From: Eledone cirrhosa
Taxonomy: Eukaryota
Length of the DNA: 64,000 nt
Direction of reading: 5' to 3'
Assembly: GCA_964016885.1 (NCBI GenBank)
Contig: OZ024743.1
Coordinates: 241,490,001-241,554,000 of the forward strand
In this document: in pieces, positions 15,601-54,475 of the stretch
Layout of the letters: the number at the start of each line of letters is the position of its first letter
Position numbering within the stretch: position 1 is the stretch's first letter
Notes under the pieces: generated by a model
Database searches by the model: none
Told to the model about the DNA's origin: nothing
The model's input: the letters and a program-made list of their open reading frames with translations, nothing else
Program-made: the position numbers and the translations under genes

Positions 15601-15640
15601 ACCAACAACAATACCACCTACACCACCACCACCAACAACA
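9652..15640 (+). repeat. Variable-length (21-33 bp) tandem array caataccacctaca(cca)n(aca)n, about 6 kb
   Basis: Nearly invariant core ataccacctac with triplet-slippage spacers. Gives the spurious 2039-aa Gly/Val ORF on the - strand. Confidence 0.97.
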
Positions 15641-21146: not shown

Positions 21147-21266
21147 GGGAAGTAAGGATTCTATACAAAACAGTGGATATAGAGAAAAGGTGAAATTGGA
21201 AATAGCACGGAAAATATATTTACGGATCTGTTTTTCTTTTTTGATTCGTCAAAGTGACATTATTGA

Positions 21267-21449
21267 GGTAGTATCGGTAGAGGGTCGGACGCCATGCTTT
21301 GAAGCATAGAGTTACCTCCCTTTATGATCTGAGTTCAAATCCCGCCGAGGTTAACTTTGCCTTGCATCCTTACGGGGTCGATAAAATAAAGTACCAGTAA
21401 TGCACTGGGATAATTGGTGGCCTTGTGCCAAAAGTAGAAACAATTATTG
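21267..21449 (+). mobile_element. SINE family 1 copy
   Basis: Colinear with 705-890. B-box GAGTTCAAATCCC. Confidence 0.85.
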
Positions 21450-21891: not shown

Positions 21892-22066
21892 GTAAGGATG
21901 AAAGGCAAAGTTAACTTCGGCGGGATTTGAACTCAAATTTATAGTCTGAGTTCAAATCCCGCCGAGGTTAACTTTGCCTTTCATCCTTACGGGGTCGATA
22001 AAGTAAAGTACCAGTAATACAATTGGATAATTGCTGGCATTGTGCCAAAAGTAGAAACAATTATTG
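21892..22066 (+). mobile_element. SINE family 1 copy, 5'-truncated with a fold-back inversion and a long TSD
   Basis: 21892-21936 is the reverse complement of 21948-21990. The flanking direct repeat attattggaatgtggttttag(a/g)gagtgtgtgtatatat occurs at about 21854 and 22060. Confidence 0.85.
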
Positions 22067-27604: not shown

Positions 27605-27721
27605 TGTGAGATTCAAAAATAACTGATATAGGGAAAAATGGTGTTAAATGTGGATATGACTAGCTTCTAATTTTCATTATAACAAACGTTGTCAGACACA
27701 CATACATACATATATATATAC

Positions 27722-27787
27722 ATAATTGTCTCTACTTTAGGCACAAGGCCAGCAATTACCCAGTGCATTACTGGTACTTTATTTTAT
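27722..27787 (-). mobile_element. SINE family 1 3' fragment
   Basis: Reverse complement of the tail at 830-893. Confidence 0.8.
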
Positions 27788-28701: not shown

Positions 28702-28797
28702 ATAGTAGTAGTAGTAGTAGTAATAGCGCAACAGGAGTAGTAGTAGCAGCAGCAGTGGTATTATTATTATTATTATTATTATTATTGTTATTGTTAT
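28643..28797 (+). repeat. (AGT)n followed by (ATT)n: left border of the retrotransposon cluster
   Basis: Seen directly in the sequence. Confidence 0.95.
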
Positions 28798-30282
28798 TCC
28801 TTGAATCTCAGTCATTGATGTTGGTTAACTGGAAAGTCCGTTGGATTGAATATCAAGCCACTACCTGCAGCCTCAGATATTCAGGACGTATCGGAGGGTT
28901 CTTGCTGTTCCAAGCAAGCATGCCTTTTGAAGCGTTCCAAAAAGCGTGAAGGGGCCGATTTTCTTTAACCATCCCTGGAAACCTTTGGAGATAGTCCCCA
29001 GTGCGCCTATGACAATCGGGATCACTTTGACTTCATGGCAGTTCCAAATCCTTTTCACCTCCCACTTTAGGTCCTGGTATCGGTTAATTTTCTCCCTCTC
29101 CTTCTCTTGCACTCTCGTGTCGAACGGGCAGGCCACATCCACAATCAGGCACGATCTTTTTTCTTTGTCCATAACCACCAGGTCAGGTCTATTGTGTTCC
29201 AGTTTTTTGTCCGTCTGTATCCTAAAATCCCACAGCACCTTCACCTGACTGTTCTCCATCACCGCCTCTGGCCTATGCTCATACCATTTCTCAGAATGTG
29301 GTAGATTGTTTAGTTTGCACAGGTGCCAGTGGATCACCCTGCCCATCACATCGTGTCTCCAGCCCTTATAGTGGATCTGGGCTAGGTGTTTACACTCGGA
29401 CACAATGTGAGCCACAGTCTCCTCTCTCTCTCCACAGATCCTGCACAGTGGGCTAGCCTCCTCCTTGTAGATATGGTGCTTCAACCACTTCGTTTTGAGG
29501 GCCTGCTCCTGCGCAGCCATTAGCATTCCCTCTGTAGCCTTTTTGAGGTCTCCTCTTCTCAACCAGTTCCATGTCTGTGGATCTCTAAATTCAGTTTTCT
29601 CAAAGAAGGTACTATGAAGGGATTTTCCCTTAAGGCTGCTCTTCCTCCTTGATGTTATTTCCTCCTTGGACATCCCCTGGCCTACTGTCCCCTCCTTCAG
29701 TACAGTTCTGAGCATTGGCTCCTTACTATAGGTCACGTATTTGTATAGGTTGTTTTTCTTCATCTGAACACAGTCCTCTATGCTGATAAGACCTCTTCCA
29801 CCCTCAGATCTCCTTAGGTAGAGTCTATCGACATCACTCCTCTTGTGGAACATGTTGTAGATAGTCAATAGCTTCCTAGTCTTCCTATCCATTTCCTTTT
29901 GTTCAGCAACATTCCATCTCAGAATTCCCGCACTGTACCTAATAATAGACACAGCTCGGGAATTTACTGCGCTTATGGCATTTCTGCTGTTCAGATGTGA
30001 CTTCAATACGCTCCTTACTCTCCGAATGTATTCAGTTCTTAACAATTCCTTCATTTTTTTGTTCTTTATGCCATCAGCCTCCAGAACGCCCAAATACTTG
30101 TATCCTTCCTCAGAGTCAATTTCCTTTATCATCTCACCTGTTGGTATCTGGATCCCGTTACTTCTGCTCAACCTACCCCTCTTCATCACAATGACTCCAC
30201 ATTTACCAATACCAAACTGCATACATATATCACTGCTGAAAATACGGACAGTGTCAACAAGCTCATCCAACTCCTTCTCACT
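28798..30282 (-). mobile_element. 5'-truncated R4/Dong-like RLE non-LTR retrotransposon
   Basis: Contains the ORF below and a ~75-nt 3'UTR that runs into (TAA)n. The 5' junction is also in (TAA)n. Confidence 0.9.
28873..30270 (-). CDS. RT C-terminus + CCHC finger + restriction-like endonuclease (partial ORF of an R4/Dong-like element)
   Basis: YKYLG, RLYLRRSEGGRGL, CRICGEREETVAHIVSEC, RPDLV..IVDVACP..EKINRY (PD-D/ExK) and PIVIGALG. Uninterrupted but 5'-truncated. Confidence 0.92.
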   Translation of the reverse strand: MDELVDTVRIFSSDICMQFGIGKCGVIVMKRGRLSRSNGIQIPTGEMIKEIDSEEGYKYLGVLEADGIKNKKMKELLRTEYIRRVRSVLKSHLNSRNAISAVNSRAVSIIRYSAGILRWNVAEQKEMDRKTRKLLTIYNMFHKRSDVDRLYLRRSEGGRGLISIEDCVQMKKNNLYKYVTYSKEPMLRTVLKEGTVGQGMSKEEITSRRKSSLKGKSLHSTFFEKTEFRDPQTWNWLRRGDLKKATEGMLMAAQEQALKTKWLKHHIYKEEASPLCRICGEREETVAHIVSECKHLAQIHYKGWRHDVMGRVIHWHLCKLNNLPHSEKWYEHRPEAVMENSQVKVLWDFRIQTDKKLEHNRPDLVVMDKEKRSCLIVDVACPFDTRVQEKEREKINRYQDLKWEVKRIWNCHEVKVIPIVIGALGTISKGFQGWLKKIGPFTLFGTLQKACLLGTARTLRYVLNI

Positions 30283-30323
30283 TTATTATTATCATTAATA
30301 TTATTATTATTATTATTTTATTA

Positions 30324-30554
30324 TTGTTATTCCTTGAATCTCAGTCATTGATGTTGGTTAACTGGAAAGTCCGTTGGATTGAATATCAAGCCACTACCTG
30401 CAGCCTCAGATATTCAGGACGTATCGGAGGGTTCTTGCTGTTCCAAGCAAGCATGCCTTTTGAAGCGTTCCAAAAAGCGTGAAGGGGCCGATTTTCTTTA
30501 ACCATCCCTGGAAACTTTTGGAGATAGTCCCCAGTGCGCCTATGACAATCGGGA

Positions 30555-30557
<3 letters not shown>
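30324..30557 (-). mobile_element. Second, ~230-bp 3'-terminal copy of the same R4/Dong-like element
   Basis: Nearly identical to about 28791-29024, with (TAA)n on both sides. Confidence 0.95.
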
Positions 30558-30610
<53 letters not shown>

Positions 30611-30819
30611 GGCGACCTACGTAGGAAATCGTATTATCGTGAGCTCCGCAAAGGTTTGTTATTTCCGTTTGTTTAAAAATTGCCATTTATGGAAAATTTT
30701 AATGTAAACTGTTTATAAGCACACATACATTGTTTTCCGAAAAGGACACCCAAAAAGATTGGGGCCTTGTGCCCAAAATTTTAACTTTTATTATTATCCA
30801 AAAATTTCTTTGAAAAAAA

Positions 30820-32812
30820 ATGGCTAATTCCCCTCTGCACGAAGCAGCTGAAAGCCTTCCTCACAAAATAACACCTCACACCGACACCACCATTGTAAAT
30901 GTTACTACGTTTGCCAACACAAAAAAAAATATAAGCAGTAGCAATATTTTAAATTTGTCTCAGGCAGACATTCATTTCCCGCCATTACCAATGACTGCAG
31001 GTGTTAAACCCTCCACCACCACCACCACCGCGACAACCACCACCACCACCACCACCACCGCGACAACAGAAACAAAAGAAGAAAAAAATAAATTAACTCG
31101 TGACGTCGAAATGAAATCAAGCAAAATGGACTCTTCCCCACCAAAGACGACTGACGTCACCACCACCACAACTGAAAATAAAATTAATATCAACGATAGC
31201 AACAACAACAACAATGACATTATAAAACCGACCCTCAGTTTCGCCATCGTAGCAAAACAATTCGAAGCGTTCACGGTAACTCAAGAAGATTTAGAAAATG
31301 CCAAACAAATGGTAAAGAAAGATGGGTACAGGGTCAGCCTCACCCCCCCCCCCCCCACCTAATAAAATGGAGCATCGGCGCCTGTGCACCGTGTCGTATA
31401 GAACAATAAATGTAAAATCGCGCCGAGGGGAACGGGCATCCGAGTCCCAAATCCCAAAAGCTTTGGGACATGTGTGGGCAAGAAAAACCCACATCAGACG
31501 TGGGCAAAAGTATGGAACCGTGGATGTGTTCTTTGAAACACCAGAGGAGGCTAGAGAACACTCCATGGCCCCATTAAAAAGTGACGACTTCACACTCGTC
31601 CCAAGCTATTGTGGCCAGAGACTCGTGAAGATCAGGGTGACCCACGTTCCACCGGCCATCGAAATTCCCTGGCTAACAGCGGCTGTCATCGCCGGCATCG
31701 AGGCCAACACGAAAATAATAACAATAGCAAAAGAAAAGCAGGAAAACTGGTCCGGATCTGGGATGGAGCTCCTGATCCAAGCGGACCAAAAAAGCATTGA
31801 GGAGATCCCAGAGGTAATAGACCTCACTGACGGCAGCCACCTCACGGTAATTGTCGAGGGCAGAAGACCTAGGTGTGTCGTTTGTGGTGAAGGAACCCAC
31901 CTAAGGGCTTTCTGCCCTCAGGCTAAAAGGTTGAGGCCACCTCTCCTACCCACCCCAGTGACACAACCATCAACACCACCAGTAGCAGAGATGCCAGCAA
32001 CAACTGTAGCAGCAACAACAGAAGCAACTATAACAGCAGCAACCGCAGCAACAGTAGCAAAACCAACACCACTACCACCACCAGCAAAACCAACACCGCC
32101 ACCACCCAACGCTTCAGAACTAGCACCAGCGCCTACACCATCCACCACACCACAACCAAAACTAACGGCTGTGGAGGATTTTCCACTCCCCGGCCTATCA
32201 CAACTGCAGACAGATTGTGACGACGAGGAGTGGGAAACGATATCCGGAAAAAAAAAAGAAACCAAAAAAGAAAAAAATTCTCTTCCTTCCCCCTCCAAAA
32301 ACAAAATACAGAGGGAAACAAATAAACTAAGAAACAAAAAAGTTAGGACAGATATGCCACCATCCACACCAGCATCACCAACCCCATCAACCCAAACACC
32401 AACACCATCACCATCATTAACTCCAACACCACCATCACCTACACCACAAAAGTCACCAAAATGCGAAACAGAAACAAACCCACAACAAACGCAAACAAAA
32501 CAAAACAACCAAAACGATGCACACTACACAGCATTAAATTTGAACAAGCAATTATTGCACTACATCCAACACAACACCAGCATCACAGAAAAAGACTACA
32601 CAACAACCCCAAAATTCACACCACCTCCACACATACAAATCACTCGCATCACACAGAAAACGTACATGACACTCAAACAAAAATTCCCCAAAGACATCGG
32701 AGACTTCCGACAAGCACTCTCCAGGAGGATTTATAAGGACATCTTTCCTGAGGAGGCCACAAGCAGTGAAAAGGATGGAAAAACCGTCCTTCCCCTACGA
32801 GAAGTAAGGTAA
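30820..32812 (+). CDS. ORF1 (gag-like, CCHC zinc knuckle) of copy A, frameshifted at the poly-C run near 31343-31356
   Basis: ORF 30820-31362 (SFAIVAK..LENAKQMVKKDGYR) and ORF 31322-32812 (CTVSYRT.., CVVCGEGTHLRAFC) align consecutively to the single ORF1 of copy B. Confidence 0.85.
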
Positions 32813-32846
32813 GTGGTCTTTCCAATCTTTTCCACTCCTTTTCAAC

Positions 32847-35800
32847 ATGACCTCACTCATTTTAGTCAGCATAAATGCGCGTGGCTTGGGGTCGTCATGG
32901 AAGCAGGGCCACCTGCTCAACGACCTCAGGTCACTAAACATAGATGTAGTGGCCATCAGCGAGACCAGAATCTCCGAAGCACAGGCTTCCGCACCGATCT
33001 TCGGCGGCTACGATGTGTACGCATCTCCCAGCCGTCCTGGATCGGGGGGAGGAGTTGCTGTGCTTTTTCGGAGAGGTTTGGATCTTGCCATACGGGCCAT
33101 CTTCCTGGACCCAGAAGGTAAGTTGGTGGTGCTGGACGTGACCAGCGGAGACGGGCAAGCTTTCAGGTTAGTGGCCGTCTATGCCCCGACAGGAGCAGGG
33201 CGGCCTGATTTCTTCCGGCGTCTGGAGACCTTTCTTGGAACGTCCCGCTCTTTAGTGTTAGTGGGCGACTGGAACGGGATCTTAGATGCACGCTGGGATT
33301 GTGTGGGATTAGTGGATAGGGAAGGAGGGTGCAAGAGTCTCACCAACCTGCTCAGACGTTTTGAACTGTCTGACAGGTACCGAATGGATTTCCCGAATGT
33401 ACCAATGTGGACTTGGACAAATCGCATAGGGTCATCCAGATCATATCTAGATAGAGTATTTTGTAGGGAAATAGATAGGTCTAGCATAGGCTGTCCACAA
33501 TTCAAGATAGTCAGCTACACGGACCACAAATTCGTGATCTGTGTGCTTGACTTAGATAGGCTTCATAGACGAGGACCCGGCTACTGGAAGTTAAATGCGT
33601 CCTTACCAGCGCGCAAGGCCTACAGAGACCGGATTAGCGAACTAGTTAAGCGGGCGTTGACGGGGGCCATCGTCAACAACAAGTGGTGGTTTGCTCTGAA
33701 AAGAGCAATTAGAATAGAGTCCATTAGGTTTAGTAAGACTTTAACAATAGAGAAAAATAGAGCAGAGGGAGAATTAGTTAGAAAATTAGATGAGACGCTT
33801 AGCAAAGGCATCGCGACCGACGTACTTGCGGCGAAATTGGCCCTTGACCAATTCTTCAATGCAAAGCACGAAGGCTGCGTTGTCAGAGCTAGGGTGCGTG
33901 CTCTCAGACACGAGGGGACGAAAGCCGTTCAATGGGCCCGAGTGGCGGAGGCGCGTCGTGGCAACAAAGCCACGATCCGGTCTTTGGTGGACCACGACGG
34001 GCGCATGCTACTCGATCCCGGGAAAATGTGTGAAGCTTTTCAGCGACACTTCGCTCAACTGTTCGGGGGCAGTGGCGGGCCGGATCGAGGGATGGACTTT
34101 AGTGTCTACCTCGACGGACTGCCGCGGCTTTCGGCCACTGAGGCGGAGTGTTGCGAAAAGCCGATAACAACCGCTGAAGTACGGGATGCAATGACTAGTT
34201 GCACAAGGGGTAAATCGCCTGGTTTGAATGGTCTGCCCTATGAACTTTACGTACAAATGCCAAACTTGTTCGGAGGCCTCTTGGCGGACGTCTACTGCAA
34301 CTGGCAACAGAACGGGAGAATTCCCAGCTCTGTGAGCCGAGGAGCGGTGGCGCTGCTGAGAAAGGATCCGAACAAGGGGGATAACATAGATAATTTTAGG
34401 CCCATAACTCTGCTAAACACAGAGTTCAAGATTTTGGCCAAGGTGCTAGCAAAGAGGTTGGCGCTTGTCGTTGGTGGTCTGGTGGGAGAGGCACAGACAT
34501 GCGCCACTCCCGACAGATCCATCCACGACAACCTCCACCTCATGCGATACATCGTAGAGAGGGTAGCTAGGGAACCTGGCACGGGTGGGTCTTTGATCAA
34601 TTTAGATCAGTCGAAAGCCTTCGATAGGGTCGACCATCGTTACCTAACGGCAGTCCTGAGGGCGGCTGGCTTTGGGCCCGTCTTCAGAGGCTGGATCGCT
34701 GCCATGCACAGCGACATCTGCTCTGTAGTGAGAGTGAACGGTCACCTTTCGGAACCGTTCAACATCATGCGCTCGGTCCGCCAAGGATGTCCCCTCTCGT
34801 CCCTATTGTACGTATTGACTCTCGAGCCATTACTGCACAAACTGGAGACGTTGAGGGGGGTCCCGCGCGAACTAGGATGCGGAAGATCCGTGTCAGCATA
34901 TGCCGACGATGTCACCGTAGTGGTGTCGAACGCCAAACACATCGAGGCGATCAGCACTACACTAAGAGAATACGAAGCGGTGACAGGAGCAATGATCAAC
35001 CAGGAAAAGTCAGTGGGCCTGCAGCTCGGCACCTGGAGAGGCAGGTCCATGCCGTCCAACAGCGTCAGCGGGCGCTGGACGGACGGACCGGTTAAATTGC
35101 TAGGGGTCTGGTTCGGTCCAGACCTCCAGACGGACAAAAACTGGGACGAGGTGACGAGCAGGGTGGCTTCTCTCACCCAGAAATGGGCCGAGAGGAAGCT
35201 ATCCCTGAAAGGTCGAGCGGAGGTGGCGAATGCGTACATCGCATCCGTCATCTACTACCGCCTGACCGTCGTACCTTGTCCTAAGCCCCGCCTGACTGCG
35301 CTGGAGCGTTTGCTCTTTCGCTTCTTGTGGAAGGGACGCGCTCCGATGGTCAGGCGGTCCATCTGCTGTCAACACCCGCTACGTGGAGGGCTGGGCATGC
35401 CGTGGCTGATGATGCGAAGACACGCGCTCAGGCTACGACATCTCCACCGCTTCCTCGACGGTGATCAGGTGTGGTCGCCGTTTGCAAGACACGTTTTTCC
35501 CCAGCTCGTCTCCTTGACGGAGCTGCAGTCCTGGGTCAAGCGAAGACCGAGAGGGAGCGCTTGGAGACTGGAATGTCTTCAGGCGCTCACAGCCCTCGAC
35601 CAATCGGGCAATGTGATCGGTGGAAACTCCACCTTGGCGTTCTATAGGGGATTAGTGGAGGGGAAGAGCGACGACGTACTTGGAGAAACTCTAGGCGTCG
35701 ACGAAAATCAACTAGCCAATCTCTTAGGAAGGACTTTTGGGCCGGGGCCTATGGACAACTTCCAGAAATCCCTGGCCTGGCAGTGCTGCCGAGGAGCTTT

Positions 35801-36266
35801 GCCAGTTCGGGATAAACTCTACAGGCATGGAGGTGCCGTCAGCCGGGCATGTCCGAGATGCGCGCAGGGCGACGAAACCGTCCTGCACGCACTCGTCCAG
35901 TGTCCGAGCATTGCTGACTTGTGGGTTTATGTCGAACACCTGCTGTCACGTGTAGGACGGATCCGGCTATCAGCTGAGTCCATCGTGAGGATTGCCCCGC
36001 CCCCTTCCTTTAGCCTGGAAGGGCAGGCAGTTTTTATCTGTCTGGTGGCCATGGCGAAAGAGATAGTATGGTGGACACGTTTGAAAGGGCTGAAGACGAG
36101 CACTTACCTCTTCGGTGATGCCCTGATTAACTTTTTCAAATTTCATTTGAAAAGGAAAATCAGGGTAGAAAGGGAAGTGCTCTCTTCCCAGCATTTTGTT
36201 GAAAGATGGGTGAGAGAAGCAAGTATGGCCCGAATGAATGGGCCTTCTCTGAGTATGTGTCTGTAA
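32847..36266 (+). CDS. ORF2 of copy A: APE endonuclease + RT + C-terminal zinc finger (1139 aa)
   Basis: SINARGL, VYAP, GDWN, SYLDR, TDH (APE). GPGYWKLN (Tx1/L1 linker). RPITLLN, LDQSKAFD, QGCPLS, YADD (RT). CPRC..ETVLHALVQC. Confidence 0.97.
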   Translation: MTSLILVSINARGLGSSWKQGHLLNDLRSLNIDVVAISETRISEAQASAPIFGGYDVYASPSRPGSGGGVAVLFRRGLDLAIRAIFLDPEGKLVVLDVTSGDGQAFRLVAVYAPTGAGRPDFFRRLETFLGTSRSLVLVGDWNGILDARWDCVGLVDREGGCKSLTNLLRRFELSDRYRMDFPNVPMWTWTNRIGSSRSYLDRVFCREIDRSSIGCPQFKIVSYTDHKFVICVLDLDRLHRRGPGYWKLNASLPARKAYRDRISELVKRALTGAIVNNKWWFALKRAIRIESIRFSKTLTIEKNRAEGELVRKLDETLSKGIATDVLAAKLALDQFFNAKHEGCVVRARVRALRHEGTKAVQWARVAEARRGNKATIRSLVDHDGRMLLDPGKMCEAFQRHFAQLFGGSGGPDRGMDFSVYLDGLPRLSATEAECCEKPITTAEVRDAMTSCTRGKSPGLNGLPYELYVQMPNLFGGLLADVYCNWQQNGRIPSSVSRGAVALLRKDPNKGDNIDNFRPITLLNTEFKILAKVLAKRLALVVGGLVGEAQTCATPDRSIHDNLHLMRYIVERVAREPGTGGSLINLDQSKAFDRVDHRYLTAVLRAAGFGPVFRGWIAAMHSDICSVVRVNGHLSEPFNIMRSVRQGCPLSSLLYVLTLEPLLHKLETLRGVPRELGCGRSVSAYADDVTVVVSNAKHIEAISTTLREYEAVTGAMINQEKSVGLQLGTWRGRSMPSNSVSGRWTDGPVKLLGVWFGPDLQTDKNWDEVTSRVASLTQKWAERKLSLKGRAEVANAYIASVIYYRLTVVPCPKPRLTALERLLFRFLWKGRAPMVRRSICCQHPLRGGLGMPWLMMRRHALRLRHLHRFLDGDQVWSPFARHVFPQLVSLTELQSWVKRRPRGSAWRLECLQALTALDQSGNVIGGNSTLAFYRGLVEGKSDDVLGETLGVDENQLANLLGRTFGPGPMDNFQKSLAWQCCRGALPVRDKLYRHGGAVSRACPRCAQGDETVLHALVQCPSIADLWVYVEHLLSRVGRIRLSAESIVRIAPPPSFSLEGQAVFICLVAMAKEIVWWTRLKGLKTSTYLFGDALINFFKFHLKRKIRVEREVLSSQHFVERWVREASMARMNGPSLSMCL

Positions 36267-36746
36267 ATTAAAGGTGGAAAACTGGGAGAGGGCACTTGCC
36301 CTGGTGGTCAGGGCCACTGTGGTCTTTTAATGGGCTTTCTCCACAAATGTCCCTTGGAAGTCTCCCCCCTATTGGGGAATTTTTCTTTGTTATTTTATTT
36401 CAACCTCTGTTTTTTTACACGCAGAAATGCCCATTTGTACCGTCCTGTATTGTCCTGTACTGTCCTTAATGTCTACTTTATGTGAACCCTTGTGGTTAAT
36501 AAAGAAAACATTAATATTATTATTATTATTATTGAATGCCATGGTTGACGGAGGCTCGGCTCTGTAAGGTATAGTAATTTTTAACCGTTAAAACAATTGT
36601 AAATTGTTTAAAACTTGAACCAAATTGTTGATAAAGACACCCTCCTCCTCGTGAGAGGGGTCTTTCTGTCCGTTATTTGGCCCTTCGGGGTTAAATAACC
36701 AGTTATTGGGGTTTTGTACCCAAAATTTCATTTTAAACAAAAAAAC

Positions 36747-38843
36747 ATGGCTACGAAAAAGAAATTTCATACGTCACTCCCACTCATTCCGTTTTCTTCT
36801 TCCTCAATCATCACTACAGCAGAGAGAAGATTGTCTCTCTCCCTCCCTTCTTTAAATGTGTCTCTCTCCCTCCCTTCTCTTTCGCAAGCGACGAAAGAAA
36901 AGAAAAGTCTCGTGCAAAGCGTGCAAGGTTTCTCCACGACGACGACGACAGCGACGAAACAGGTGTGCGGGAAATACGAAAACCCAGTTCATTCGTCTGA
37001 CGTCAGGAATAATAGCAGTAGCAGCCGTAATAACAACAGCAACAGTGACAATGAAAACAACAGTAGCAGCCGCAACAGCATCACCAGCAGCATAAACAAC
37101 AACAGCATTAGCAGCAGCAACACCAACAACAACCACAGCAACAGCGGCGGAGGCAGTAGTCGTAGTACCTGCAGCAACAACAAAAGTAACAGCAGCTCTG
37201 ACGACAACAACAACAGCAGAGAAAAACCAATCTCATTTGCAGGTATTGCGAAAAACTTGGAAACAATCCTCATAACAAATGAGGAATTAGAGGAAGCGAA
37301 GAAGATGGTGACAAAGAACGGACACCGAGCAATCTGCAAGGCAGCGAAAAATTTTTTCGAAACCCAAGAGCACTGTACGGTCACGTACCGTACAGTAAGT
37401 ACAAAATCCCGTAGGGTGGAAAGAGCCACAGAGGCCCAAATACAAAAAGCCTTGGGGTCTGTGTGGCAGAGGAAAACGCACATCACCCGAGGCAAAAAAT
37501 ACGCCACCGTAGACGTACTTTTTGCCACACCCCAGGAGGCAAAGGCCCAATCAGTAGTGACCCTAAGGAGCGAGGAAATGGTGTTGGTGCCCTCCTACTG
37601 CGGGCAAAAAATTGTGAGGGTCAAACTGACCCACGCCCCCCCCGGAATGACCCCTTCTTGGCTGGCCGCGTCTGTCCTCGTCGGAATCGAGGACAAAACA
37701 ACTGTACTGCAAGTACAGAAAAAAGTAAGAGAAGATTGGGTCGGCTCCTCCATTGAGATGCTAATCCAAACCAACCAGGAGTGCATCGAAGCTATCCCGG
37801 ATGTGATAGACTTCGATAACGGCACTCAACTGCCCATAAGTGTTGAGGGCAAACGCCCGAAATGCTTTCGCTGTGGATCGAAGACTCACCTCAGGGCCTT
37901 CTGCAACGAGAAGACCCTGAGAAAGGAGAAAACCCCCCTCCTTCCGAATCCGGCTCCACGGCTACCAGCAACAGGACAAGCGGCAACCAGGAACGATAGG
38001 TCCGTGGCACCCATACCCACTCCACGGAAATCAAAGACAGCAGCAGCAGTGGAAATATTAACAACAACAACACCAATACCAAATGCAGCTGCAACAGAGA
38101 CTCCAGTGCAAACATCACCAACAACAACAAGTGAAAGAGTGGAGCTGGTACCCCTCCCCGACCTTACAGAATCAGACATGGAGTGTGAGGTGGGAGAGGG
38201 ATGGCAAAAGGTCGCAAGAAGGCACAAACGCAGAAGCAGCGCATCGTCGCCTTTGAAAAGGGAGGAAAGAAATGAGAAAAGGGTAAAGTCTACTGCAAAG
38301 AGACCCACAGCAGCAACACCACCAACACCATCACCACCCACACCAGCACCACCATCACCACCGGCGACAACCCCACCGCCAACAACACCTTCAACACCAC
38401 CACCACAAGCACCAACATCGCAAACACAACAACAAAACACACACACCCAGCAACAACGACAAGAAAATAGCAGAACCACACCCCACCCCCAGAAAAACAA
38501 ATGCACGGCAATAAATACACACAACAAGAAACTAATGACTTACATAATTGAACACACAGACATTTCACAACAGGACTACATAATACCAGCACCAATCAAA
38601 ACGCCAACTAACATAAGACTGCTAAAAATAGCACAGAAACAATACACAAACATTAAAACGAAATTCCCCAACGCAGTTGGTGATTTCAGGGACCTAGGAG
38701 GAACCATCAATCGAAGAGTATACTCAGACATTCTCTTAGAAGAGCCGACGACCAGCCGAAGGGACGATTCAACGGTCCATTCACCAGACGATCAAGTGAA
38801 AAGGGATGTAAAAACCATCCCTCCTCTACCAAAAGTACGGTAA
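36747..38843 (+). CDS. ORF1 (gag-like, CCHC zinc knuckle) of copy B
   Basis: First ATG at 36747, in a context (aaaaacATGGCTA) like that of copy A. CFRCGSKTHLRAFC knuckle, Ser/Asn- and Pro/Thr-rich linkers and a basic NLS-like patch. Confidence 0.9.
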   Translation: MATKKKFHTSLPLIPFSSSSIITTAERRLSLSLPSLNVSLSLPSLSQATKEKKSLVQSVQGFSTTTTTATKQVCGKYENPVHSSDVRNNSSSSRNNNSNSDNENNSSSRNSITSSINNNSISSSNTNNNHSNSGGGSSRSTCSNNKSNSSSDDNNNSREKPISFAGIAKNLETILITNEELEEAKKMVTKNGHRAICKAAKNFFETQEHCTVTYRTVSTKSRRVERATEAQIQKALGSVWQRKTHITRGKKYATVDVLFATPQEAKAQSVVTLRSEEMVLVPSYCGQKIVRVKLTHAPPGMTPSWLAASVLVGIEDKTTVLQVQKKVREDWVGSSIEMLIQTNQECIEAIPDVIDFDNGTQLPISVEGKRPKCFRCGSKTHLRAFCNEKTLRKEKTPLLPNPAPRLPATGQAATRNDRSVAPIPTPRKSKTAAAVEILTTTTPIPNAAATETPVQTSPTTTSERVELVPLPDLTESDMECEVGEGWQKVARRHKRRSSASSPLKREERNEKRVKSTAKRPTAATPPTPSPPTPAPPSPPATTPPPTTPSTPPPQAPTSQTQQQNTHTQQQRQENSRTTPHPQKNKCTAINTHNKKLMTYIIEHTDISQQDYIIPAPIKTPTNIRLLKIAQKQYTNIKTKFPNAVGDFRDLGGTINRRVYSDILLEEPTTSRRDDSTVHSPDDQVKRDVKTIPPLPKVR

Positions 38844-38878
38844 GTGGTCTTTCCCATCTTTTCCACTCTATTTTAAAC

Positions 38879-41800
38879 ATGACCTCACTCAGAATAGGCA
38901 GCATAAATGCGCGTGGCTTGGGGTCGTCATGGAAGCAGGGTCACCTGCTCAACGACCTCAGGTCACTAAACATAGATGTAGTGGCCATCAACGAGACCAG
39001 AATCTCCGAAGCACGGGCCTTCGCACCGATCTTCGGCGGCTACGATGTGTACGCATCTCCCAGCCGTCCTGGATCGGGTGGAGGAGTTGCTGTGCTTTTT
39101 CGGAGAGATTTGGATCTCGCCATACGGGCCATCTTCCTGGACCCAGAGGGTAAGCTGGTGGTGCTGGACGTGACCAGCGGAGACGGGCAAGCTTTCAGGC
39201 TAGTGGCCGTCTATGCCCCGACAGGAGCAGGGCGGCCTGATTTCTTCCGGCGTCTGGAGACCTTTCTTGGAACGTCCCGCTCTTTAGTGTTAGTGGGCGA
39301 CTGGAACGGGATCTTAGATGCACGCTGGGACTGTGTGGGATTAGCGGATAGGGGTGGAGGGTGCAAGAGCCTCACCAACCTGCTCAGGCGTTTTGAACTG
39401 TCTGACAGGTACCGATTGGATTTCCCGAATGTGCCAATGTGGACTTGGACAAACCGCATTGTGTCATCCAGATCATATCTAGATAGAGTATTTTGTAGGG
39501 AAATAGATAGGTCTAGCATAGGCTGTCCACAATTCAAGATAGTCAGCTACACGGACCACAAATTCGTGACCTGTGTGCTTGACTTAGATAGGCTTCATAG
39601 ACGAGGACCCGGCTACTGGAAGCTAAACGCGTCCTTACCAGCGCGCAAGGCCTACAGAGACCGGATTAGCGAACTAGTTAAGCGGGCGTTGACGGGGGCC
39701 ATCGTCAACAACAAGTGGTGGTTTGCTCTGAAAAGAGCGATTAGAATAGAATCGATTAGGTTTAGTAAGGCTTTAGCAATAGAGAAAAATAGAGCAGAGG
39801 GAGAACTAGTTAGAAAATTAGACGAGGCGCTTAGCAAAGGCATTGCGACCGACGTGCTTGCGGCGAAATTGGCCCTTGACCAATTCTTCAATGCAAAGCA
39901 CGAAGGCTGCGTTGTCAGAGCTAGGGTGCGTGCTCTCAGACACGAGGGGACGAAAGCCATTCAATGGGCCCGAGTGGCGGAGGCGCGTCGTGGCAACAAA
40001 GCCACGATCCGGTCTTTGGTGGACCACGACGGGAGCATGCTACTCGATCCCGGGCAAATGTGTGAAGCTTTTCAGCGACACTTCGCTCAGCTGTTCGGGG
40101 GCAGCGGGGGACCGGGTAGAGGGATGGACTTTAGTGTCTACCTCGACGGACTGCCGCGGCTCTCGGCCACTGAGGCGAAGTGTTGCGAAAAGCCGATAAC
40201 AGCCGCTGAAGTAAGGGAGGCAATGACTGGCTGCACAAGGGGTAAATCGCCTGGTTTGGATGGTCTGCCCTATGAACTTTACGTACAGATGCCAGACTTG
40301 TTCGGAGGCCTCTTGGCGGACGTCTACTGCAACTGGCAACAGAACGGGAGAATTCCCAGTTCTGTGAGCCGAGGAGCGGTGGCACTGCTGAGAAAGGATC
40401 CGAACAAGGGGGATAACATAGACAATTTCCGGCCCATAACTCTGCTAAACACAGAGTTTAAGATTTTGGCCAAGGTGCTAGCAAAGAGGTTGGCGCTTGT
40501 CGTTGGTGGTCTGGTGGGAGAGGCGCAGACATGCGCCATTCCCGACAGATCCATCCACGACAACCTCCACCTCATGCGATACATCGTAGAGAGGGTAGCT
40601 AGGGAACCTGGCACGGGTGGGTCCTTGATCAATTTAGATCAGTCGAAAGCTTTCGATAGGGTCGACCATCGTTACCTAGCGGCAGTCCTGAGGGCGGCTG
40701 GCTTTGGGCCCGTCTTCAGAGGCTGGATCGCTGCCATGCACAGCGACATCTGCTCTGTGGTGAGAGTGAACGGTCACCTGTCGGAACCGTTCAACATCAT
40801 GCGCTCGGTCCGCCAAGGATGTCCCCTCTCGTCCCTCTTGTACGTATTGACTCTCGAGCCATTACTGCACAAACTGGAGACGTTGAGGGGAGTCCCGCGC
40901 GAACTAGGATGCGGAAGATCCGTGTCAGCATATGCCGACGATGTCACCGTAGTGGTGTCGAACGCCAAACACATCGAGGCGATCGGCACTACACTAAGAG
41001 AATACGAAGCGGTGACAGGAGCAATGATCAACCAGGAAAAGTCAGTGGGCCTGCAGCTCGGCACCTGGAGAGGCAGGTCCATGCCGTCCAACAGCGTCGT
41101 CGGGCGCTGGACGGACGGACCGGTTAAATTGCTAGGGGTCTGGTTCGGTCCGGACCTCCAGACGGACAAAAACTGGGACGAGGTGACGAGCAGGGTGGCT
41201 TCTCTCACCCAGAAATGGGCGGAGAGGAAGCTATCCCTGAAAGGTCGAGCGGAGGTGGCTAACGCGTACATCGCGTCTGTCATCTGCTACCGCCTAACCG
41301 TCGTACCTTGCCCTAAGCCTCGCCTGACTGCGCTGGAGCGTTTGCTCTTTCGCTTTTTGTGGAAGGGACGTGCTCCGATGGTCAGGCGGTCCATCTGTTG
41401 TCAACACCCGCTACGTGGAGGGCTGGGCATGCCGTGGCTGATGATGCGCAGGCACGCGCTCAGGCTACGACATCTCCACCTCTTCCTCGACGGTGATCAG
41501 GTGTGGTCGCCGTTTGCTAGACGCGTTTTTCCCCAGCTCGTTTCCTTGACGGAGCTGCAGTCCTGGGTCAAGCGAAGACCGAGAGGGAGCGCCTGGAGAC
41601 TGGAATGTCTTCAGGCGCTCACAGCCCTCGACCAATCGGGCAATGTGATCGGTGGAAACTCCACCTCGGCGTTCTATAGAGGATTAGTGGAGGGGAAGAG
41701 CGACGACGTACTTGGGGAAACTCTAGGCGTCGACGAAAATCAACTAGCCAATCTCTTCGGAAGAACTTTCGGGCCAGGGCCTATGGACAACTTCCAGAAA

Positions 41801-42298
41801 TCTCTGGCCTGGCAGTGCTACCGAGGAGCCTTGCCAGTTCGGGATAAACTCTACAGGCATGGAGGTGCCGTCAGCCGGGCATGTCCGATATGCGCGCAGG
41901 GCGACGAAACCGTCCTGCACGCACTCGTCCAGTGTCCGAAAATTGCTGACTTGTGGGTTTATGTCGAACACCTGCTGTCGCGTTTAGGACGGATCCAGCT
42001 ATCATCTGAGTCTATCGTGAGGATTGCCCCGCCCTCCTCCTTTAACCGGGAAGGGCAGGCAGTTTTTATCTGTCTGGTGGCCATGGCGAAAGAGATAGTA
42101 TGGTGGACACGTTTGAAAGGGCTGAAGACGAGCACTTACCTCTTCGGTGATGCTCTGATTGACTTTTTCAAATTTCATTTGAAAAGGAAAATCAGAGTAG
42201 AGAAGGAAGTGCTCTCTTCCCAGCATTTTGTTGAAAGATGGGTGAGAGAAGCAAGAATGGCCCGAGTGAATGGGCCGACTCTGAGTATATATCTGTAA
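38879..42298 (+). CDS. ORF2 of copy B: APE + RT + zinc finger (1139 aa)
   Basis: Same motifs and same length as copy A, differing only by scattered substitutions. Confidence 0.97.
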   Translation: MTSLRIGSINARGLGSSWKQGHLLNDLRSLNIDVVAINETRISEARAFAPIFGGYDVYASPSRPGSGGGVAVLFRRDLDLAIRAIFLDPEGKLVVLDVTSGDGQAFRLVAVYAPTGAGRPDFFRRLETFLGTSRSLVLVGDWNGILDARWDCVGLADRGGGCKSLTNLLRRFELSDRYRLDFPNVPMWTWTNRIVSSRSYLDRVFCREIDRSSIGCPQFKIVSYTDHKFVTCVLDLDRLHRRGPGYWKLNASLPARKAYRDRISELVKRALTGAIVNNKWWFALKRAIRIESIRFSKALAIEKNRAEGELVRKLDEALSKGIATDVLAAKLALDQFFNAKHEGCVVRARVRALRHEGTKAIQWARVAEARRGNKATIRSLVDHDGSMLLDPGQMCEAFQRHFAQLFGGSGGPGRGMDFSVYLDGLPRLSATEAKCCEKPITAAEVREAMTGCTRGKSPGLDGLPYELYVQMPDLFGGLLADVYCNWQQNGRIPSSVSRGAVALLRKDPNKGDNIDNFRPITLLNTEFKILAKVLAKRLALVVGGLVGEAQTCAIPDRSIHDNLHLMRYIVERVAREPGTGGSLINLDQSKAFDRVDHRYLAAVLRAAGFGPVFRGWIAAMHSDICSVVRVNGHLSEPFNIMRSVRQGCPLSSLLYVLTLEPLLHKLETLRGVPRELGCGRSVSAYADDVTVVVSNAKHIEAIGTTLREYEAVTGAMINQEKSVGLQLGTWRGRSMPSNSVVGRWTDGPVKLLGVWFGPDLQTDKNWDEVTSRVASLTQKWAERKLSLKGRAEVANAYIASVICYRLTVVPCPKPRLTALERLLFRFLWKGRAPMVRRSICCQHPLRGGLGMPWLMMRRHALRLRHLHLFLDGDQVWSPFARRVFPQLVSLTELQSWVKRRPRGSAWRLECLQALTALDQSGNVIGGNSTSAFYRGLVEGKSDDVLGETLGVDENQLANLFGRTFGPGPMDNFQKSLAWQCYRGALPVRDKLYRHGGAVSRACPICAQGDETVLHALVQCPKIADLWVYVEHLLSRLGRIQLSSESIVRIAPPSSFNREGQAVFICLVAMAKEIVWWTRLKGLKTSTYLFGDALIDFFKFHLKRKIRVEKEVLSSQHFVERWVREARMARVNGPTLSIYL

Positions 42299-42563
42299 AC
42301 TAAAGGTGGAAAACTGGGAGAGGGCACTTGCCTTGGTGGTCAGGGTCATTGTGGCTTTTTACTGGGCTTTCTCCACAAATGTCCCTCCGAAGTCCCCCCC
42401 CCCCCCTATTGGGGAATTTTTCATTGTTATTTTCATTGTTATTTTTGTTACATCCTCTGTTTTTGTTTTTTTACACGCAGAAATGCCCATTTGTACCGTC
42501 CTGCATTGTCCTGCACTGTCCTTAATGTCTACTTTATGTAAACCCTTGTGGTTAATAAAGAAA

Positions 42564-42565
<2 letters not shown>

Positions 42566-42639
<74 letters not shown>

Positions 42640-43099: not shown

Positions 43100-43212
43100 T
43101 AGATAATAACAACAACAACAATAGTAACACCAAGAACTGTATCGATAACAGCAGCAGCAGCTGTAATAGCAGCAACAACCACAACAATGAAAGCAAAGTC
43201 AACAGCAGCAAT

Positions 43213-43243
<31 letters not shown>

Positions 43244-43419
43244 GCAACAACAGCAACAATGAAAGCAAAGTCAACAGCAGCTATAACAACAACAACAACA
43301 ACAACAACAACAGCAACAACAACAGCAATGAAAGCAATGTCAACAGCAGCAATAACAACAACAACAACAACAACAACAGCAACAACAACAGCAATGAAAG
43401 CAATGTCAACAGCAGCAAT

Positions 43420-43462
<43 letters not shown>

Positions 43463-46400
43463 GCAACAACAACAGTAATGAAAGCAATGTCAACAGCAGC
43501 AATAACAATATCACCAACCACAACAGTAACAACAACAATGAAAGCAATGTCAACAGCAGCAATAACAACAACAACAGCAACCACAAAAGTAACAACAACG
43601 ATGAAAGCAATGTCAAAAGCAGCAATAACAACAACAACACCAACCACAACAGTAAGAACAACAATGAAACCAATGTCAACCGCAGCAATAACAACAACAA
43701 CACCAACCACAACAGTAACAACAACAATGAAAGCAATGTCAACTGCAGCAATAACAACAACAACACCAACCACAACAGTAACAACAACAATGAAACCAAT
43801 GTCAACAGCAGCAATAACAACAACAACACCAACCACAAAAGTAACAACAACAATGAAAGCAATGTCAACAGCAGCAATAACAACAACAACAACAACAACA
43901 ACCACAACAGTAACCACAAAAATGAAAGAAATGTCAACAGCAGCAATAACAACAACAACAACACCAACCACAACAGCAACAACAACAACAATGAAAGCAA
44001 TGTCAACAGCAGCAATAACAACAACAACAACACCAACCACAACAGTAACAACAACAATGAAAGCAATGTCAACAGCAGCAATAACAACAACAACAACAAC
44101 CACAACAGTAACCACAACAATGAAAGCAATGTCAACAGCAGCAATAACAACAACAACAACAACACCAACCACAACAGCAACAACAACAATTAAAGCAATG
44201 TCAACAGCAGCAATAACAACAACAACAACACCAACCACAACAGCAACAACAACAATTAAAGCAATGTCAACAGCAGCAATAACAACAACAACACCAACCA
44301 CAACAGTAACAACAACAACGAAAGCAATGTCAACAACAACACCAAACCCAACCGTAACAACAACAACAATGAAACCGATGTCAACAGCAGCAATAACAAC
44401 AACAACCATGACAGTAACAACAACAATGAGAGCAATGTCAACAGCAGCAATAACAACAACAACACCAACCACAACAGTAACAACAACTGCAATGAAAGCA
44501 ATGTCAACAGCAGCAATAACAACAACAACACCAACCACAACAGTAACAACAACAATGAAAGCAATGTCAACAGCAGCAATAACAATAACACCAACCACAA
44601 CAGTAACAACAACAATGAAAGCAATGTCAACAGCAGCAATAACAATAACAACACCAACCACAACAGTAACAACAACAATGAAAGTAATGTCAACAGCAGC
44701 AATAACAACAACAACACCAACCACAAAAGTAACAACAACAATGAAAGCAATGTCAACAGCAGCAATAACAACAACAACACCAACCACAACAGTAACAACA
44801 ACAATGAAAGCAATGTCAACAGCAGCAATAACAACAACACACCAACCACAACAGTAACAACAACAATGAAAGCAATGTCAACAGCAGCAATAACAACGAC
44901 AACAACACCAACCACAACAGTAACAACAACAATGAAAGCAATGTCAACAGCAGCAATAACAACAACACCACCAACAACAACAGTAACAACAACAACAATG
45001 AAAGCAATGTCAACAGCAGCAATAACAACAACAACAATACCAACCACAACAGTAACAACAACTGCAATGAAACCAATTTCAACAACAGCAATAACAACAA
45101 CAACACCAACCACAAAAGTAACAACAACAATGAAAGCAATGTCAACAGCAGCAATAACAACAACAACACCAACCACAACAGTAACAACAACAATGAAAGC
45201 AATGTCAACAGCAGCAATAACAACAACAACACCAACCACGACAGTAACAACAACAACAATGAAAGCAATGTCAACAGCAGCAATAACAACAACAACACCA
45301 TCCACAACAGTAACAACAACAATGAAACCAATGTCAACAGCAGCAATAACAACAACAACAATAACCACAACAGTAACAACAACAATGAAAGCAATGTCAA
45401 CAGCAGCAATAACAACAACAACAACAACAACAACCACAACAGTAACCACAACAATGAAATAAATGTCAACAGCAGCAATAACAACAACAACACCGACCTC
45501 AACCGTAACAACAACAATGAAACCAATGTCAACAGCAGCAATAACACCAACAACAACAACCACGACAGTAACAACAACAATGAGAGCAATGTCAACTGCA
45601 GCAATAACAACAACAATAACTACAACAGTAACAACAACAATGAAAGCAATGTCAACAGCAGCAATAACGACAACAACACCAACCACAACATTAACAACAA
45701 CAATGAAAGCAATGTCAACAGCAGCAATAACAACAACACCACCAACCACAACAGGAACAACAACTGCAATGAAACCGATGTCAACAGCAGCAATAACAAT
45801 AACAACACCAACCACAACAGTAACAACAACAATGAAAGCAATGTCAACAGCAGCAATAACAACAACAACAACAACAACCACAACAGTAACAACAACAATG
45901 AAAGCAATGTCAACAGCAGCAATAACAACAACAACACCAACCACAACAGTAACAAAAACAATGAAAGCAATGTCAACAGCAGCAATAACGACAACAACAC
46001 CAACCACAACAGTAACAACAACTGCAATGAAAGCAATGTCAACAGCAGCAATAACAACAACAACACCAACCACAATAGTAACAACAACAATGAAACCAAT
46101 GTACCCAGCAGCAATAACAACAACAACACCAACCACAACAGTAACAACAACAATGAAAGCAATGTCAAGAGCAGCAATAACAACAACGACACCAACCACA
46201 ACAGTAACAACAACAACAATGAAACCAATGTCACCAGCAGCAATAACAACAACAACACCAACCACAACAGTAACAACAACAATGAAAGCAATGTCAACAG
46301 CAGCAATAACAACAACGACACCAACCACAACAGTAACAGCAACAACAATGAAACCAATGTCAACAGCAGTAATAATAACAACAACACCAACCACAACAGT

Positions 46401-48319
46401 AACAACAGCAATGAAACCAATGTCAACAGCAGCAATAACAACAACAACACCAACCACAACAGTAACAACAACAACAATGAAAGCAATGTCAACAGCAGCA
46501 ATAACAAGAACAACACCAACCACAATAGTAACAACAACAATGAAACCAATGTCAACAGCAGCAATAACAACAACAACAATACCCACAACAGTAACAACAA
46601 CTGCAATGAAAGCAATGTCAACAGCAGCAATAACAACAACAACAATAACCACAACAGTAACAACAACTGCAATGAAAGCAATGGCAACAGCAGCAATAAC
46701 AACAACAACAACAACCACAACAGTAACAACAACAATGAAAGCAATGTCAACAGCAGCAATAACAACAACAACACCAACCACAACAGTAACAACAACAATG
46801 AAAACAATGGCAACAGCAGCAATAACAACAACAACAACAACCACAACAGTAGCAACAACAATGAAACCAATGTCAACAGCAGCAATAACAACAACAACAC
46901 CAACCACAACAGTAACAACAACAATGAAAGCAATGTCAACAGCAGCAATAACAACAACAACACCAACCACAACAGTAACAACAACAATGAAAGCAATGTC
47001 AACAGCAGCAATAACACCAACAGCACCAACCACAACAGTAACAACAACTGCAATGAAACCAATGTCAACAGCAGCAATAACAACAACAACACCAACCACA
47101 ACAGTAACAACAACAAAGAAAGCAATGTCAACAGCAGCAACAACAACAACAACACCAACTACAACAGTAACAACAACAATGAAAGCAATGTCAACAGCAG
47201 CAATAACAACAACAACACCAACCACATCAATAACAACAACTGCAATGAAACCAATGTCAACAGCAGCAATAACAACAACAACACCAACCACAACAGTAAC
47301 AACAACAATGAAAGCAATGTCAACAGCAGCAATAACAACGATAACACCAACCACAACAGTAACAACAACAATGAGAGCAATTTCAACAGCAGCAATAACA
47401 ACAACATCACCAACCACAACAGTAACAACAACAACAATGAAAGCAATGTCAACAGCAGCAATAACAACAACAACACCAACCACAACAGTAACAACAACAA
47501 TGAAAGCAATGTCAACAGCAGCAATAACAACGATAACACCAACCACAACAGTAACAACAACAATGAAAGCAATGTCAACGGCAGCAATAACAACAACAAC
47601 AACAACCACAACAGTAACAACAACAACAACACCAACCACAACAGTAACAACAACAATGAAAGCAATGTCAACAGCAGCAGTAACAACAACAACACCAACC
47701 ACAACAGTAACAACAATAATGAAAGCAATGCCAACAGCAGCAATAACAACAACAACTCCAACCACAACAGTAACAACAACAATGAAAGCAATGTCACAGC
47801 AGCAATAATAACAACAACAATAACCACAACGGTAACAACAACAATGAAAGCAATGTCAACAGCAGCAATAACAACAACAACACCAACCACAACAGTAACA
47901 ACAACAATCAAAGCAATGTCAACAGCAGCAATAACAACAACAACACCAACCACAACAGTAACAACAACAATGAAAGCAATGCCAACAGCAGCAATAACAA
48001 CAACAACAATAACCACAACAGTAACAACAACAATGAAAGCAATGTCAACAGCAGCAATAACAACAACAACAATAACCACAACAGTAACAACAAAAATGAA
48101 ACCAATGTCAACAGCAGCAATAACAACAACAACACCAACCACAACAGTAACAACAACAACAATGAAAGCAATGTCAACAGCAGCAATAACAACAACAACA
48201 CCAACCACAACAGTAACAACAACAATGAAACCAATGTCAACAGCAGCAATAACAACAACAACACCAACCACAACTTTAACAACAACAATGAAAGCAATGT
48301 CAACAGCAGCAATAACAAC

Positions 48320-48353
<34 letters not shown>

Positions 48354-51300: not shown

Positions 51301-51492
51301 AACAACACCAACCACAACAGTAACAACAACAACAATGAAAGCAATGTCAACAGCAGCAATAACAACAACAACACCAACCACAACAGTAACAACAACAATG
51401 AAAGCAATGTCAACAGCAGCAATAACAACAACAACACCAACCACAACTTTAACAACAACAATGAAAGCAATGTCAACAGCAGCAATAACAAC

Positions 51493-51526
<34 letters not shown>

Positions 51527-54069: not shown

Positions 54070-54290
54070 TATAATTATTTCTTCTATAAAGACAGGGCCA
54101 ACCATTTTGAGAAGAGGAAAATGGATTAATTCGACCCCAATGCGTTACTGTTACTTTATTTTATCGACCCTGTAAGCATGAGGGTCAAAGTTAATCTCGG
54201 CTAGATTTGAAATCAGAACGTAAAGGGCCGTAATTCTATGTTGCAATGCATATTGTCCGACGCTTTACCTATACTGCCAATCCATCGCCC
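54070..54290 (-). mobile_element. SINE family 1, older and longer variant
   Basis: Diverged reverse complement with an extra segment between the ctgg hairpin and the tail. Confidence 0.75.
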
Positions 54291-54475
54291 TAAACATAAA
54301 GAAGTATAATGAAGCAGACACAATTCCTTTAGCAAGTTCTACCAGTTTTGTTAAATATATAAGTAGTCCTACATTTCAAACTGACTTTTGGGATCAGATA
54401 ATCATAGTGTGTAATAGTTTTGATTCCGTAATACAAACACACGCACATACGCACACACGCACACACAAACACACA

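Follow-up and report, generated by a model that had tools for sequence, protein, structure and literature searches.

Two tandem Tx1-like LINEs of Eledone cirrhosa with closely similar ORF2 and deeply diverged 5'UTR and ORF1 modules

Layout and identity of the two elements

The stretch of DNA analysed here (the window) comprises 64,000 nucleotides of Eledone cirrhosa (GenBank assembly GCA_964016885.1, contig OZ024743.1, forward-strand positions 241,490,001 to 241,554,000) and contains two head-to-tail long interspersed nuclear elements (LINEs): element A at window positions 30611-36509 and element B at 36534-42565, both on the plus strand. An (ATT)18 tract at 30557-30610, the likely target microsatellite, forms the 5' flank of A, an (ATT)n linker at 36510-36533 joins the two elements, and an (ATT)10 tract at 42566-42596 forms the 3' flank of B. 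(ATT)n thus stands on three of three flanks, which hints at a target preference on the evidence of these two copies. The adjacency of A and B probably reflects nothing more than the insertion of both families into this repeat.

Element A starts with the letter G and an AT-rich 5' untranslated region (5'UTR) of 209 nt (30611-30819). Its first open reading frame, ORF1 (30820-32812), is split by a +1 frameshift at a run of 14 C residues (31343-31356) into ORFs at 30820-31362 and 31322-32812. A segment comprising the ORF1 stop and most of the spacer (32808-32836) carries a splice-donor-like GTAAGT motif and forms the 5' arm of a predicted long-range RNA duplex. ORF2 (32847-36266; 1139 aa) encodes an apurinic/apyrimidinic-like endonuclease, a reverse transcriptase (RT) and a C-terminal Cys/His zinc motif; the 3'UTR (36267-36509) holds the 3' duplex arm (36273-36300) and an AATAAA close to its end. 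Element B has the same layout: a 5'UTR of 213 nt, also with G as its first letter (36534-36746), an intact ORF1 of 698 aa (36747-38843), a 5' duplex arm (38839-38867) with its predicted partner at 42305-42332, an ORF2 of 1139 aa with its catalytic motifs present (38879-42298), and a 3'UTR with the 3' duplex arm and AATAAA (42299-42565). The ORF1 protein of B consists of a low-complexity N-terminus, two predicted RRM domains and one CCHC knuckle (within 37227-37931), a P/T-rich linker and a C-terminal patch.

Both ORF2s match the Pfam families Exo_endo_phos, RVT_1 and zf-RVT above cut-off and retain the catalytic motifs. Among solved structures, which represent few clades, human L1 ORF2p is the best match (E 8e-53, compared with 1.5e-21 for R2). 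The spacer between the ORFs measures 34-35 nt, and AATAAA stands just ahead of (ATT)n, without a long poly-A tail. By these sequence features, that is, the endonuclease, reverse transcriptase and zinc motif, an ORF2 closer to L1 and a two-ORF layout, A and B are non-LTR retrotransposons of the L1 group.

No Pfam family matches the ORF1 core above cut-off; an MBD match in ORF1 that stayed below it was dropped. An AlphaFold2 model of the core (alignment of 30 sequences; mean confidence score, pLDDT, 91.8) found the tandem-RRM proteins HuD, IMP3 and Sxl as top Foldseek matches (E ~3e-4, TM score 0.3-0.45), and a CCHC knuckle of the form CX2CX4HX4C follows downstream of the RRM. On this model ORF1 is of type I, with RRM upstream of a CCHC knuckle, a type that in non-mammalian animals goes with the Tx1 clade according to passages of PMC5203782. 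Membership in Tx1 is therefore likely. In an RT tree that holds no named Tx1 reference, the nearest named sequence is from Argonauta (74%), followed by turtle and fish proteins at ~40%. With the ORF1 core as query, a word-index search gave no score to any of its 974 candidates; a full HMMER scan gave 275 relatives at E <= 0.001, none above 41% identity among the 150 listed, and of ten that were looked up the six with names are all from Octopus or Argonauta. For O. vulgaris, 13 recently active L1-Tx1 families are described in the part of PMC13282606 drawn on here. In addition, an Atlas features search with the ORF1 core (37227-37931) gave clusters that contain ZCCHC3 RNA-binding domains (score 0.91, 177 shared features), a hint that this ORF1 type might be kin to that host protein, which paper titles present as an L1 suppressor. 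In two ORF1 relatives, P0109 and P0113, the knuckle region is matched by 26 and 40 repeats, respectively.

Divergence of the two halves and the junction between them

The ORF2s of A and B align without gaps at 96.2% nucleotide identity (129 of 3420 sites differ), and 1090 of 1140 codon positions, the stop counted, are the same in translation. This bears out an earlier note on this DNA, which had described two colinear proteins of 1139 aa with scattered substitutions. The 3'UTRs, called near-identical there, fall within the single blastn high-scoring segment pair that covers 32765-36533 and 38795-42589 at 95.2% identity. Synonymous divergence in ORF2 is low (dS 0.098, dN 0.021 by the Nei-Gojobori method over 1139 codons; dN/dS ~0.2), and the RT distance between A and B is 0.024 changes per site. 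At the rate of 0.0036 per million years given in PMC13282606 this dS corresponds to roughly 14 million years, a loose upper figure only, because copy A carries alleles that are rare in the sequencing runs compared. A mosaic structure of ORF2 is not supported, since clustering of the differences gave p values of 0.035-0.34 over four bin sizes and the longest identical run a p value of 0.65.

The 5' halves are far more distant. Over the ORF1 core and knuckle (180 codons), A and B share 54% of amino acids and 62% of nucleotides, with saturated synonymous sites (proportion of differing synonymous sites, pS, 0.74) and a dN of 0.33; the C-terminal patch retains 42% amino acid identity (pS 0.77). The difference in pS between ORF2 and the ORF1 core is significant (Fisher p ~1e-53). 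Synonymous divergence thus differs more than 20-fold between the ORFs, and the similar dS in both that the earlier note had considered is not what was found. In an ORF1 tree A and B are sisters (support 99/97), 0.78 changes per site apart. The core (put at about 55-60% identity), knuckle and C-terminal patch do align, as that note had it; its view that nothing else does fails for a further 44 codons directly upstream of the core (43% aa). Similarly, the 5'UTRs, judged essentially unalignable, have little in common except for a motif of ~24 nt ahead of the ATG, whose local score was matched by 2 of 1000 shuffles.

The transition between the two regimes is abrupt. High identity starts at 32769 (32768-32773 within 2 log-likelihood units), a shift within 6 nt, and the rise reported in the last ~50 nt of ORF1 (near 32770 and 38800) is thereby placed by likelihood. 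This abruptness argues against a history free of recombination, in which ORF1 and the 5'UTR would simply have diverged rapidly, for instance through an arms race with the host. ORF1 is generally the more variable LINE gene, as passages of PMC4120745 state; in A and B, however, its core synonymous sites are saturated with dN far below dS, which points to long purifying selection, and we regard a history of fast evolution alone as scarcely credible.

The alignment around the junction follows two registers. Anchored on the C-terminal patch, the offset between A and B is 5989; anchored on the stop codon it is 6031, a difference of exactly 14 codons. In the upstream register, identity of about 55-60% continues to 32798 (32789-32813 within 2 log-likelihood units), and in the downstream register identity is 81% from 32769 onwards; cutting the upstream match at 32765-32771, where the downstream match begins, costs 5.0-5.8 log-likelihood units. 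Accordingly, A 32771-32797 matches B twice. The first copy (38760-38786) is diverged, matching A at 16 of 27 nt (59%), a score in the pre-anchored upstream register that was equalled by 1 of 842 other offsets. The second lies 42 nt downstream, in frame, in the A-like tail of B (38800-38843, the counterpart of 32769-32812 in A at ~81% identity) and matches at 22 of 27 nt over 38802-38828 (81%). Divergence between the two copies in B equals that between the first copy and A, with 16 of 27 nt matching in both comparisons. The first copy would derive from a donor and the second from the chassis that carries ORF2.

Both registers and the doubled segment are accounted for if an old B-type 5' module was joined once, out of register, to an A-type tail. 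We therefore propose, at a probability of roughly 70%, that B is a member of a recombinant family, in which the 5'UTR and ORF1 of an old sister lineage were joined about 42 nt out of register to an A-type ORF1 tail, and which then multiplied. As for direction, the tail segment that is doubled in B in frame and out of register makes it highly probable, as judged from the sequence, that B is the recombinant and that the native combination with this ORF2 is that of A.

Both combinations in other sequencing runs

B occurs in 20 listed sources from 16 studies, and 7 of 24 runs were compared in detail: a first set of X1, X5, X4 and X6 (three studies) and a second set of four runs, X6, X7, X22 and X20. 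Bridging of a junction was judged among the contig pieces listed for each run, at most eight, a bridge of the B junction being at least 31 nt on both sides; contig depth was taken as a hint only and gives no copy number.

Both ORF1 types are covered in all four runs of the first set. The B junction is bridged in X4, X5 and X6 (three of the four), at a depth like that of the B ORF1 body, and one X4 contig extends from the B-type ORF1 through roughly 1.7 kb of ORF2. X6 and X7 (two of the four runs of the second set) contain contigs across the A junction, again at a depth like that of its ORF1 body. Thus the B junction belongs to a multi-copy family, as observed in three runs at the depth of B ORF1, which only hints at copy number. 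In X6 the A and B contigs stop at the same homologous position (32837 and 38868), and the loose end ahead of 32769 is B-type sequence that overlaps the end of the diverged tail copy. The per-contig depths of A and B add up to approximately that of ORF2 in X6 (A 29.5-33.7, B 43.2-44.1, ORF2 74.5-82.4) and in X4 (A 3.5-4.7, B 6.1, ORF2 8.6-10.1), a hint that most close copies of ORF2 in these runs are linked to one or the other of the two ORF1 types. Together with the more than 20-fold synonymous contrast, the two junctions found at ORF1-body depth in other runs uphold the earlier proposal that a promoter and ORF1 module was swapped onto a common ORF2.

That note had offered conversion of ORF2 within the tandem pair as an alternative origin. 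Local gene conversion, or a misassembly, that homogenised ORF2 at this locus only would suit the adjacency of the copies and the at most mild clustering of ORF2 differences (p 0.035 at one of the four bin sizes). With both junctions present in contigs of other studies, and hence both forms beyond the locus, and with 129 of 3420 ORF2 sites differing at a dN/dS of ~0.2, as expected of sequences that diverged under selection, this explanation is very improbable.

The runs also bear on direction. A-type ORF1 is the more varied type: X6 contains two variants, and X5 and X7 each have a contig, of 88% and 96% identity, respectively; B-type ORF1 is seen as single contigs of 1.4-1.6 kb that are 99.1-99.5% identical to copy B. 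The greater diversity of A agrees with B as the recombinant. The reverse, in which B-type would be native with an ancient internal duplication of its tail and A would be recombinant or have lost one copy, draws on the closeness of copy B to the dominant run sequence, on its very short RT branch (0.0017 compared with 0.023 for A) and on the greater depth of B-type contigs in X4 and X6. It requires, however, an extra old duplication whose copies differ exactly as the A and B ORF1s do (16 of 27 nt in both comparisons), and it leaves A as the more diverse type. Moreover, at the ten ORF2 sites listed most of the summed X1 depth carries the letter of B, so the long A branch stems largely from alleles that are rare outside the window copy. 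We consider the reversed direction improbable.

Several observations weigh against B as an amplified recombinant. The first tail copy is weak at the protein level (BLOSUM score 9, reached by 9 of 687 other positions). A-type copies vary at 32786 and 32794, being B-like in X6 and like the window copy in X7; later exchange could have blurred the scar in this way. The A-type contigs of other runs reach only the common tail or spacer (to 32804 or 32837), short of ORF2, and the X6 contig just past the point of convergence (32808-32927) has a depth of 44.1 where ~78 would be expected. In X7, B-like junction alleles stand at depths of 25,000-100,000, about 100-fold above the ~285-330 of A-type ORF1; of the two ORF1s, that of A was the one compared in that run, and further ORF1 types may be linked to the same ORF2 there. 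X1 and X5 may represent the window's own source and thus not be independent. Finally, a donor family, with B-type ORF1 on a different ORF2, was not found in the runs and scans examined, which included no whole-genome search.

Several sister ORF2 families are indicated, and one of them may be the donor lineage: many contigs of the runs are ~86% identical to this ORF2, and X6 and X7 show loose ends with diverged ORF2 starts. Of two metagenome scans, one returned 211 pattern matches but no relative, and the other no match to the spacer pattern. X22 and X20 have no cover outside low-complexity parts, and among the raw reads of X22 (1938 million letters) none falls on the core of A-type ORF1 or on the 5' end of ORF2, although another run bearing that label contained 0.46 of the words. 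Organism labels (17 coded) are therefore unreliable as evidence of host, and neither host range nor horizontal transfer was concluded from them.

The runs further show that the split of A-type ORF1 is not general. The C run counts 14 residues in the window, 11 in X6 and 8 in X5, lengths that all put ORF1 out of frame by one and the same step. In X7 it counts 7: the dominant A-type contig there, with 7 C residues fewer than the window copy, keeps ORF1 in frame throughout, and the O. sinensis homolog P0110 is likewise continuous. These continuous forms indicate that the split is derived and speak against a family-wide programmed frameshift. In the shifted forms, the downstream part of ORF1 shares its frame with an ATG at 31322, and a subfamily may possibly be spreading with a split ORF1. 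Copy B, with both ORFs and the catalytic motifs intact and 97.8-99.5% identity to dominant B contigs, is consistent with a potentially active element, as the earlier note supposed from its sequence.

Joining route, spacer and known systems

Of the mechanisms that could have joined the modules, a jump of the reverse transcriptase during insertion is the foremost candidate, at about even odds. Working back along A-type RNA, the enzyme would copy ORF2 and then the spacer before it jumped to the homologous tail in the RNA, or in a genomic copy, of the donor. Such a crossover would be kept because ORF1 stays whole and in frame and because spacer, ORF2 and 3'UTR come from one parent, which preserves their predicted pairing; the recombinant would then amplify as a family of its own. 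The same chimera, with the same direction, could have arisen at the DNA level if the donor and an A-type element stood in tandem in (ATT)n and a deletion of ~6 kb joined their ORF1 tails, or, as a variant, if a 5'-truncated A-type element inserted into the donor's ORF1 tail. Head-to-tail tandem copies are present at this very locus, an out-of-register join suits end-joining, and a truncated-insertion route is proposed in passages of PMC4120745. Set against this, recombination between genomic copies is discounted in the part of PMC3600994 consulted as unlikely to give an active element, and an endonuclease preferring (ATT)n would presumably cut only rarely in the ORF1 tail. Nothing in the evidence separates the two routes, a point that counts against any firm choice of the jump; we view a DNA-level join as a possible but less likely route.

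The predicted pairing involves the spacer (A 32808-32836, B 38839-38867). Among ~2900 windows, its best predicted partner in both copies is the start of the 3'UTR, at -36.0 kcal/mol in A and -40.7 kcal/mol in B; the next independent partners reach -29.6 and -31.5 kcal/mol, and none of 500 shuffles attained the observed values. The margin shrinks when the windows are lengthened (z -2.8 in A, with 1 or more of 200 shuffles doing better, and -4.4 in B). About 40 nt separate the crossover (~32769/38800) from the spacer arm downstream of it, so that a recombinant takes both pairing arms from a single parent, with ORF1 kept in frame. We infer that this predicted pairing may constrain the position of the breakpoint. 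A wider and rather doubtful extension is that spacer, ORF2 and 3'UTR of octopod Tx1-like LINEs constitute a self-paired RNA cassette that is repeatedly passed between anciently diverged promoter and ORF1 modules, with crossovers confined to the ORF1 tail outside the 5' arm. If so, families would be combinations of modules, in which ORF1 and promoter would be under host pressure and the enzyme cassette would be swept across them.

The spacer region has a second feature. In A as in B, the stop codon of ORF1 coincides in part with GTAAGT, and this motif together with an AG at codon 8 of ORF2 delimits a candidate intron of 61-62 nt (32809-32869 and 38840-38901), removal of which is predicted to yield an in-frame ORF1-ORF2 fusion; alternatively, ORF2 itself might be removed as a candidate intron. 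No RNA run is among the listed sources, and X20, whose RNA nature is a guess, covers only low-complexity parts.

Other repeats occur around the two elements. A minus-strand ORF of 449 aa (28873-30222, within 28759-30610) has a weak match to the restriction-like endonuclease region of R2 (E 0.009), and there is a second minus-strand 3' fragment at 30409-30564 (92% amino acid identity); each of the two ends in (TAA)n. We take these minus-strand elements to resemble Dong/R4 elements, stacked in the same microsatellite in the opposite orientation, where both the Dong label and the TAA target are our assumption. Further upstream, a minus-strand ORF of 265 aa (24147-24944) without a Pfam match looks like the C-terminal region of a Penelope-like RT/GIY-YIG protein. 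A dispersed repeat of ~190 nt resembling a short interspersed nuclear element, most copies of which are 80-92% identical, occurs at 703-894, 2308-2507, 3320-3470, 21258-21448, 21938-22065, 27710-27787 and 54136-54291; blastn gave no match between it and the last 116 nt of the 3'UTR of A. Two very long strand-biased minisatellite blocks (4424-15850 and 43168-54033) comprise CCA-rich units of 65 and 30 nt and an AAC-rich unit of 63 nt, the latter beginning ~570 nt past element B.

The principle of swapping 5'UTR and ORF1 is known from rodent L1, which limits the interest of the present case, and has been inferred in CR1/L2; new are the depth of divergence, the ORF1 type, the replacement of a short 5'UTR and a scar that shows direction. 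The closest parallel is that of mouse L1MdTf and L1MdGf, in which, according to passages of PMC3600994, the 5'UTR and ORF1 of one lineage stand on the ORF2 of another, with RT strand switching as the proposed route. As in those families, divergence in A and B is discordant across a breakpoint near the 5' end of ORF2, and the recombinant appears to have amplified as its own family. The mouse parents amplified only ~2-8 million years ago and their breakpoints lie inside ORF2, as stated there; that of A and B lies in the ORF1 tail, the identity between the ORF1s is 54% and their synonymous sites are saturated, the ORF1 type is RRM plus CCHC, and a duplication of 14 codons was left behind. In CR1/L2 an entire ORF1 was likewise moved onto another ORF2, making ORF1 evolution reticulate, as passages of PMC4120745 report; those transfers are ancient and inferred from tree conflict, with no junction or direction given in the abstract and conclusions of that paper. 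The swap proposed for A and B is recent by comparison, with both combinations present and a readable scar.

Preference for a target sequence is common in the Tx1 clade, though not universal. Simple-repeat targets are familiar from Kibi, Koshi and crocodilian Tx1, LINEs with apurinic endonuclease and RT that passages of PMC4494074 place next to (TC)n, (TTC)n, (TTCC)n or (TTTC)n; A and B are flanked by (ATT)n, on the evidence of two copies, and those passages do not mention ORF1 exchange. Clade 2 L1 elements of fish, frog and lizard share the short 5'UTR of ~0.2 kb, as described in part of PMC5381506, whose authors found no 5'UTR replacement there; in the swap proposed here a short 5'UTR would have been replaced together with ORF1. 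Reports of ORF1 exchange in Tx1 or cephalopod LINEs were not found in the literature searched, mostly without subscription papers and with Repbase outside the search.

Exchange of a whole ORF1 between distant LINE lineages has in most cases been deduced from old conflicts between trees, whereas the present locus keeps both combinations together with a directional scar, which opens the mechanism to study with one assembled genome. The pair offers a natural test of two questions: does a type I ORF1 protein depend on an ORF2 or RNA partner that matches it, and is it owing to different promoters that two families with the same enzyme and target coexist? Repeat libraries based on RT similarity will in practice merge the A and B families and mis-date both. 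By analogy with engineered human-mouse L1 elements, in which, as part of PMC3091869 reports, ORF1 or ORF2 can be exchanged at ~35-63% amino acid conservation with retrotransposition kept, B would be predicted to work; those were laboratory constructs with a type II ORF1, and B would be a natural, amplified counterpart with a type I ORF1.

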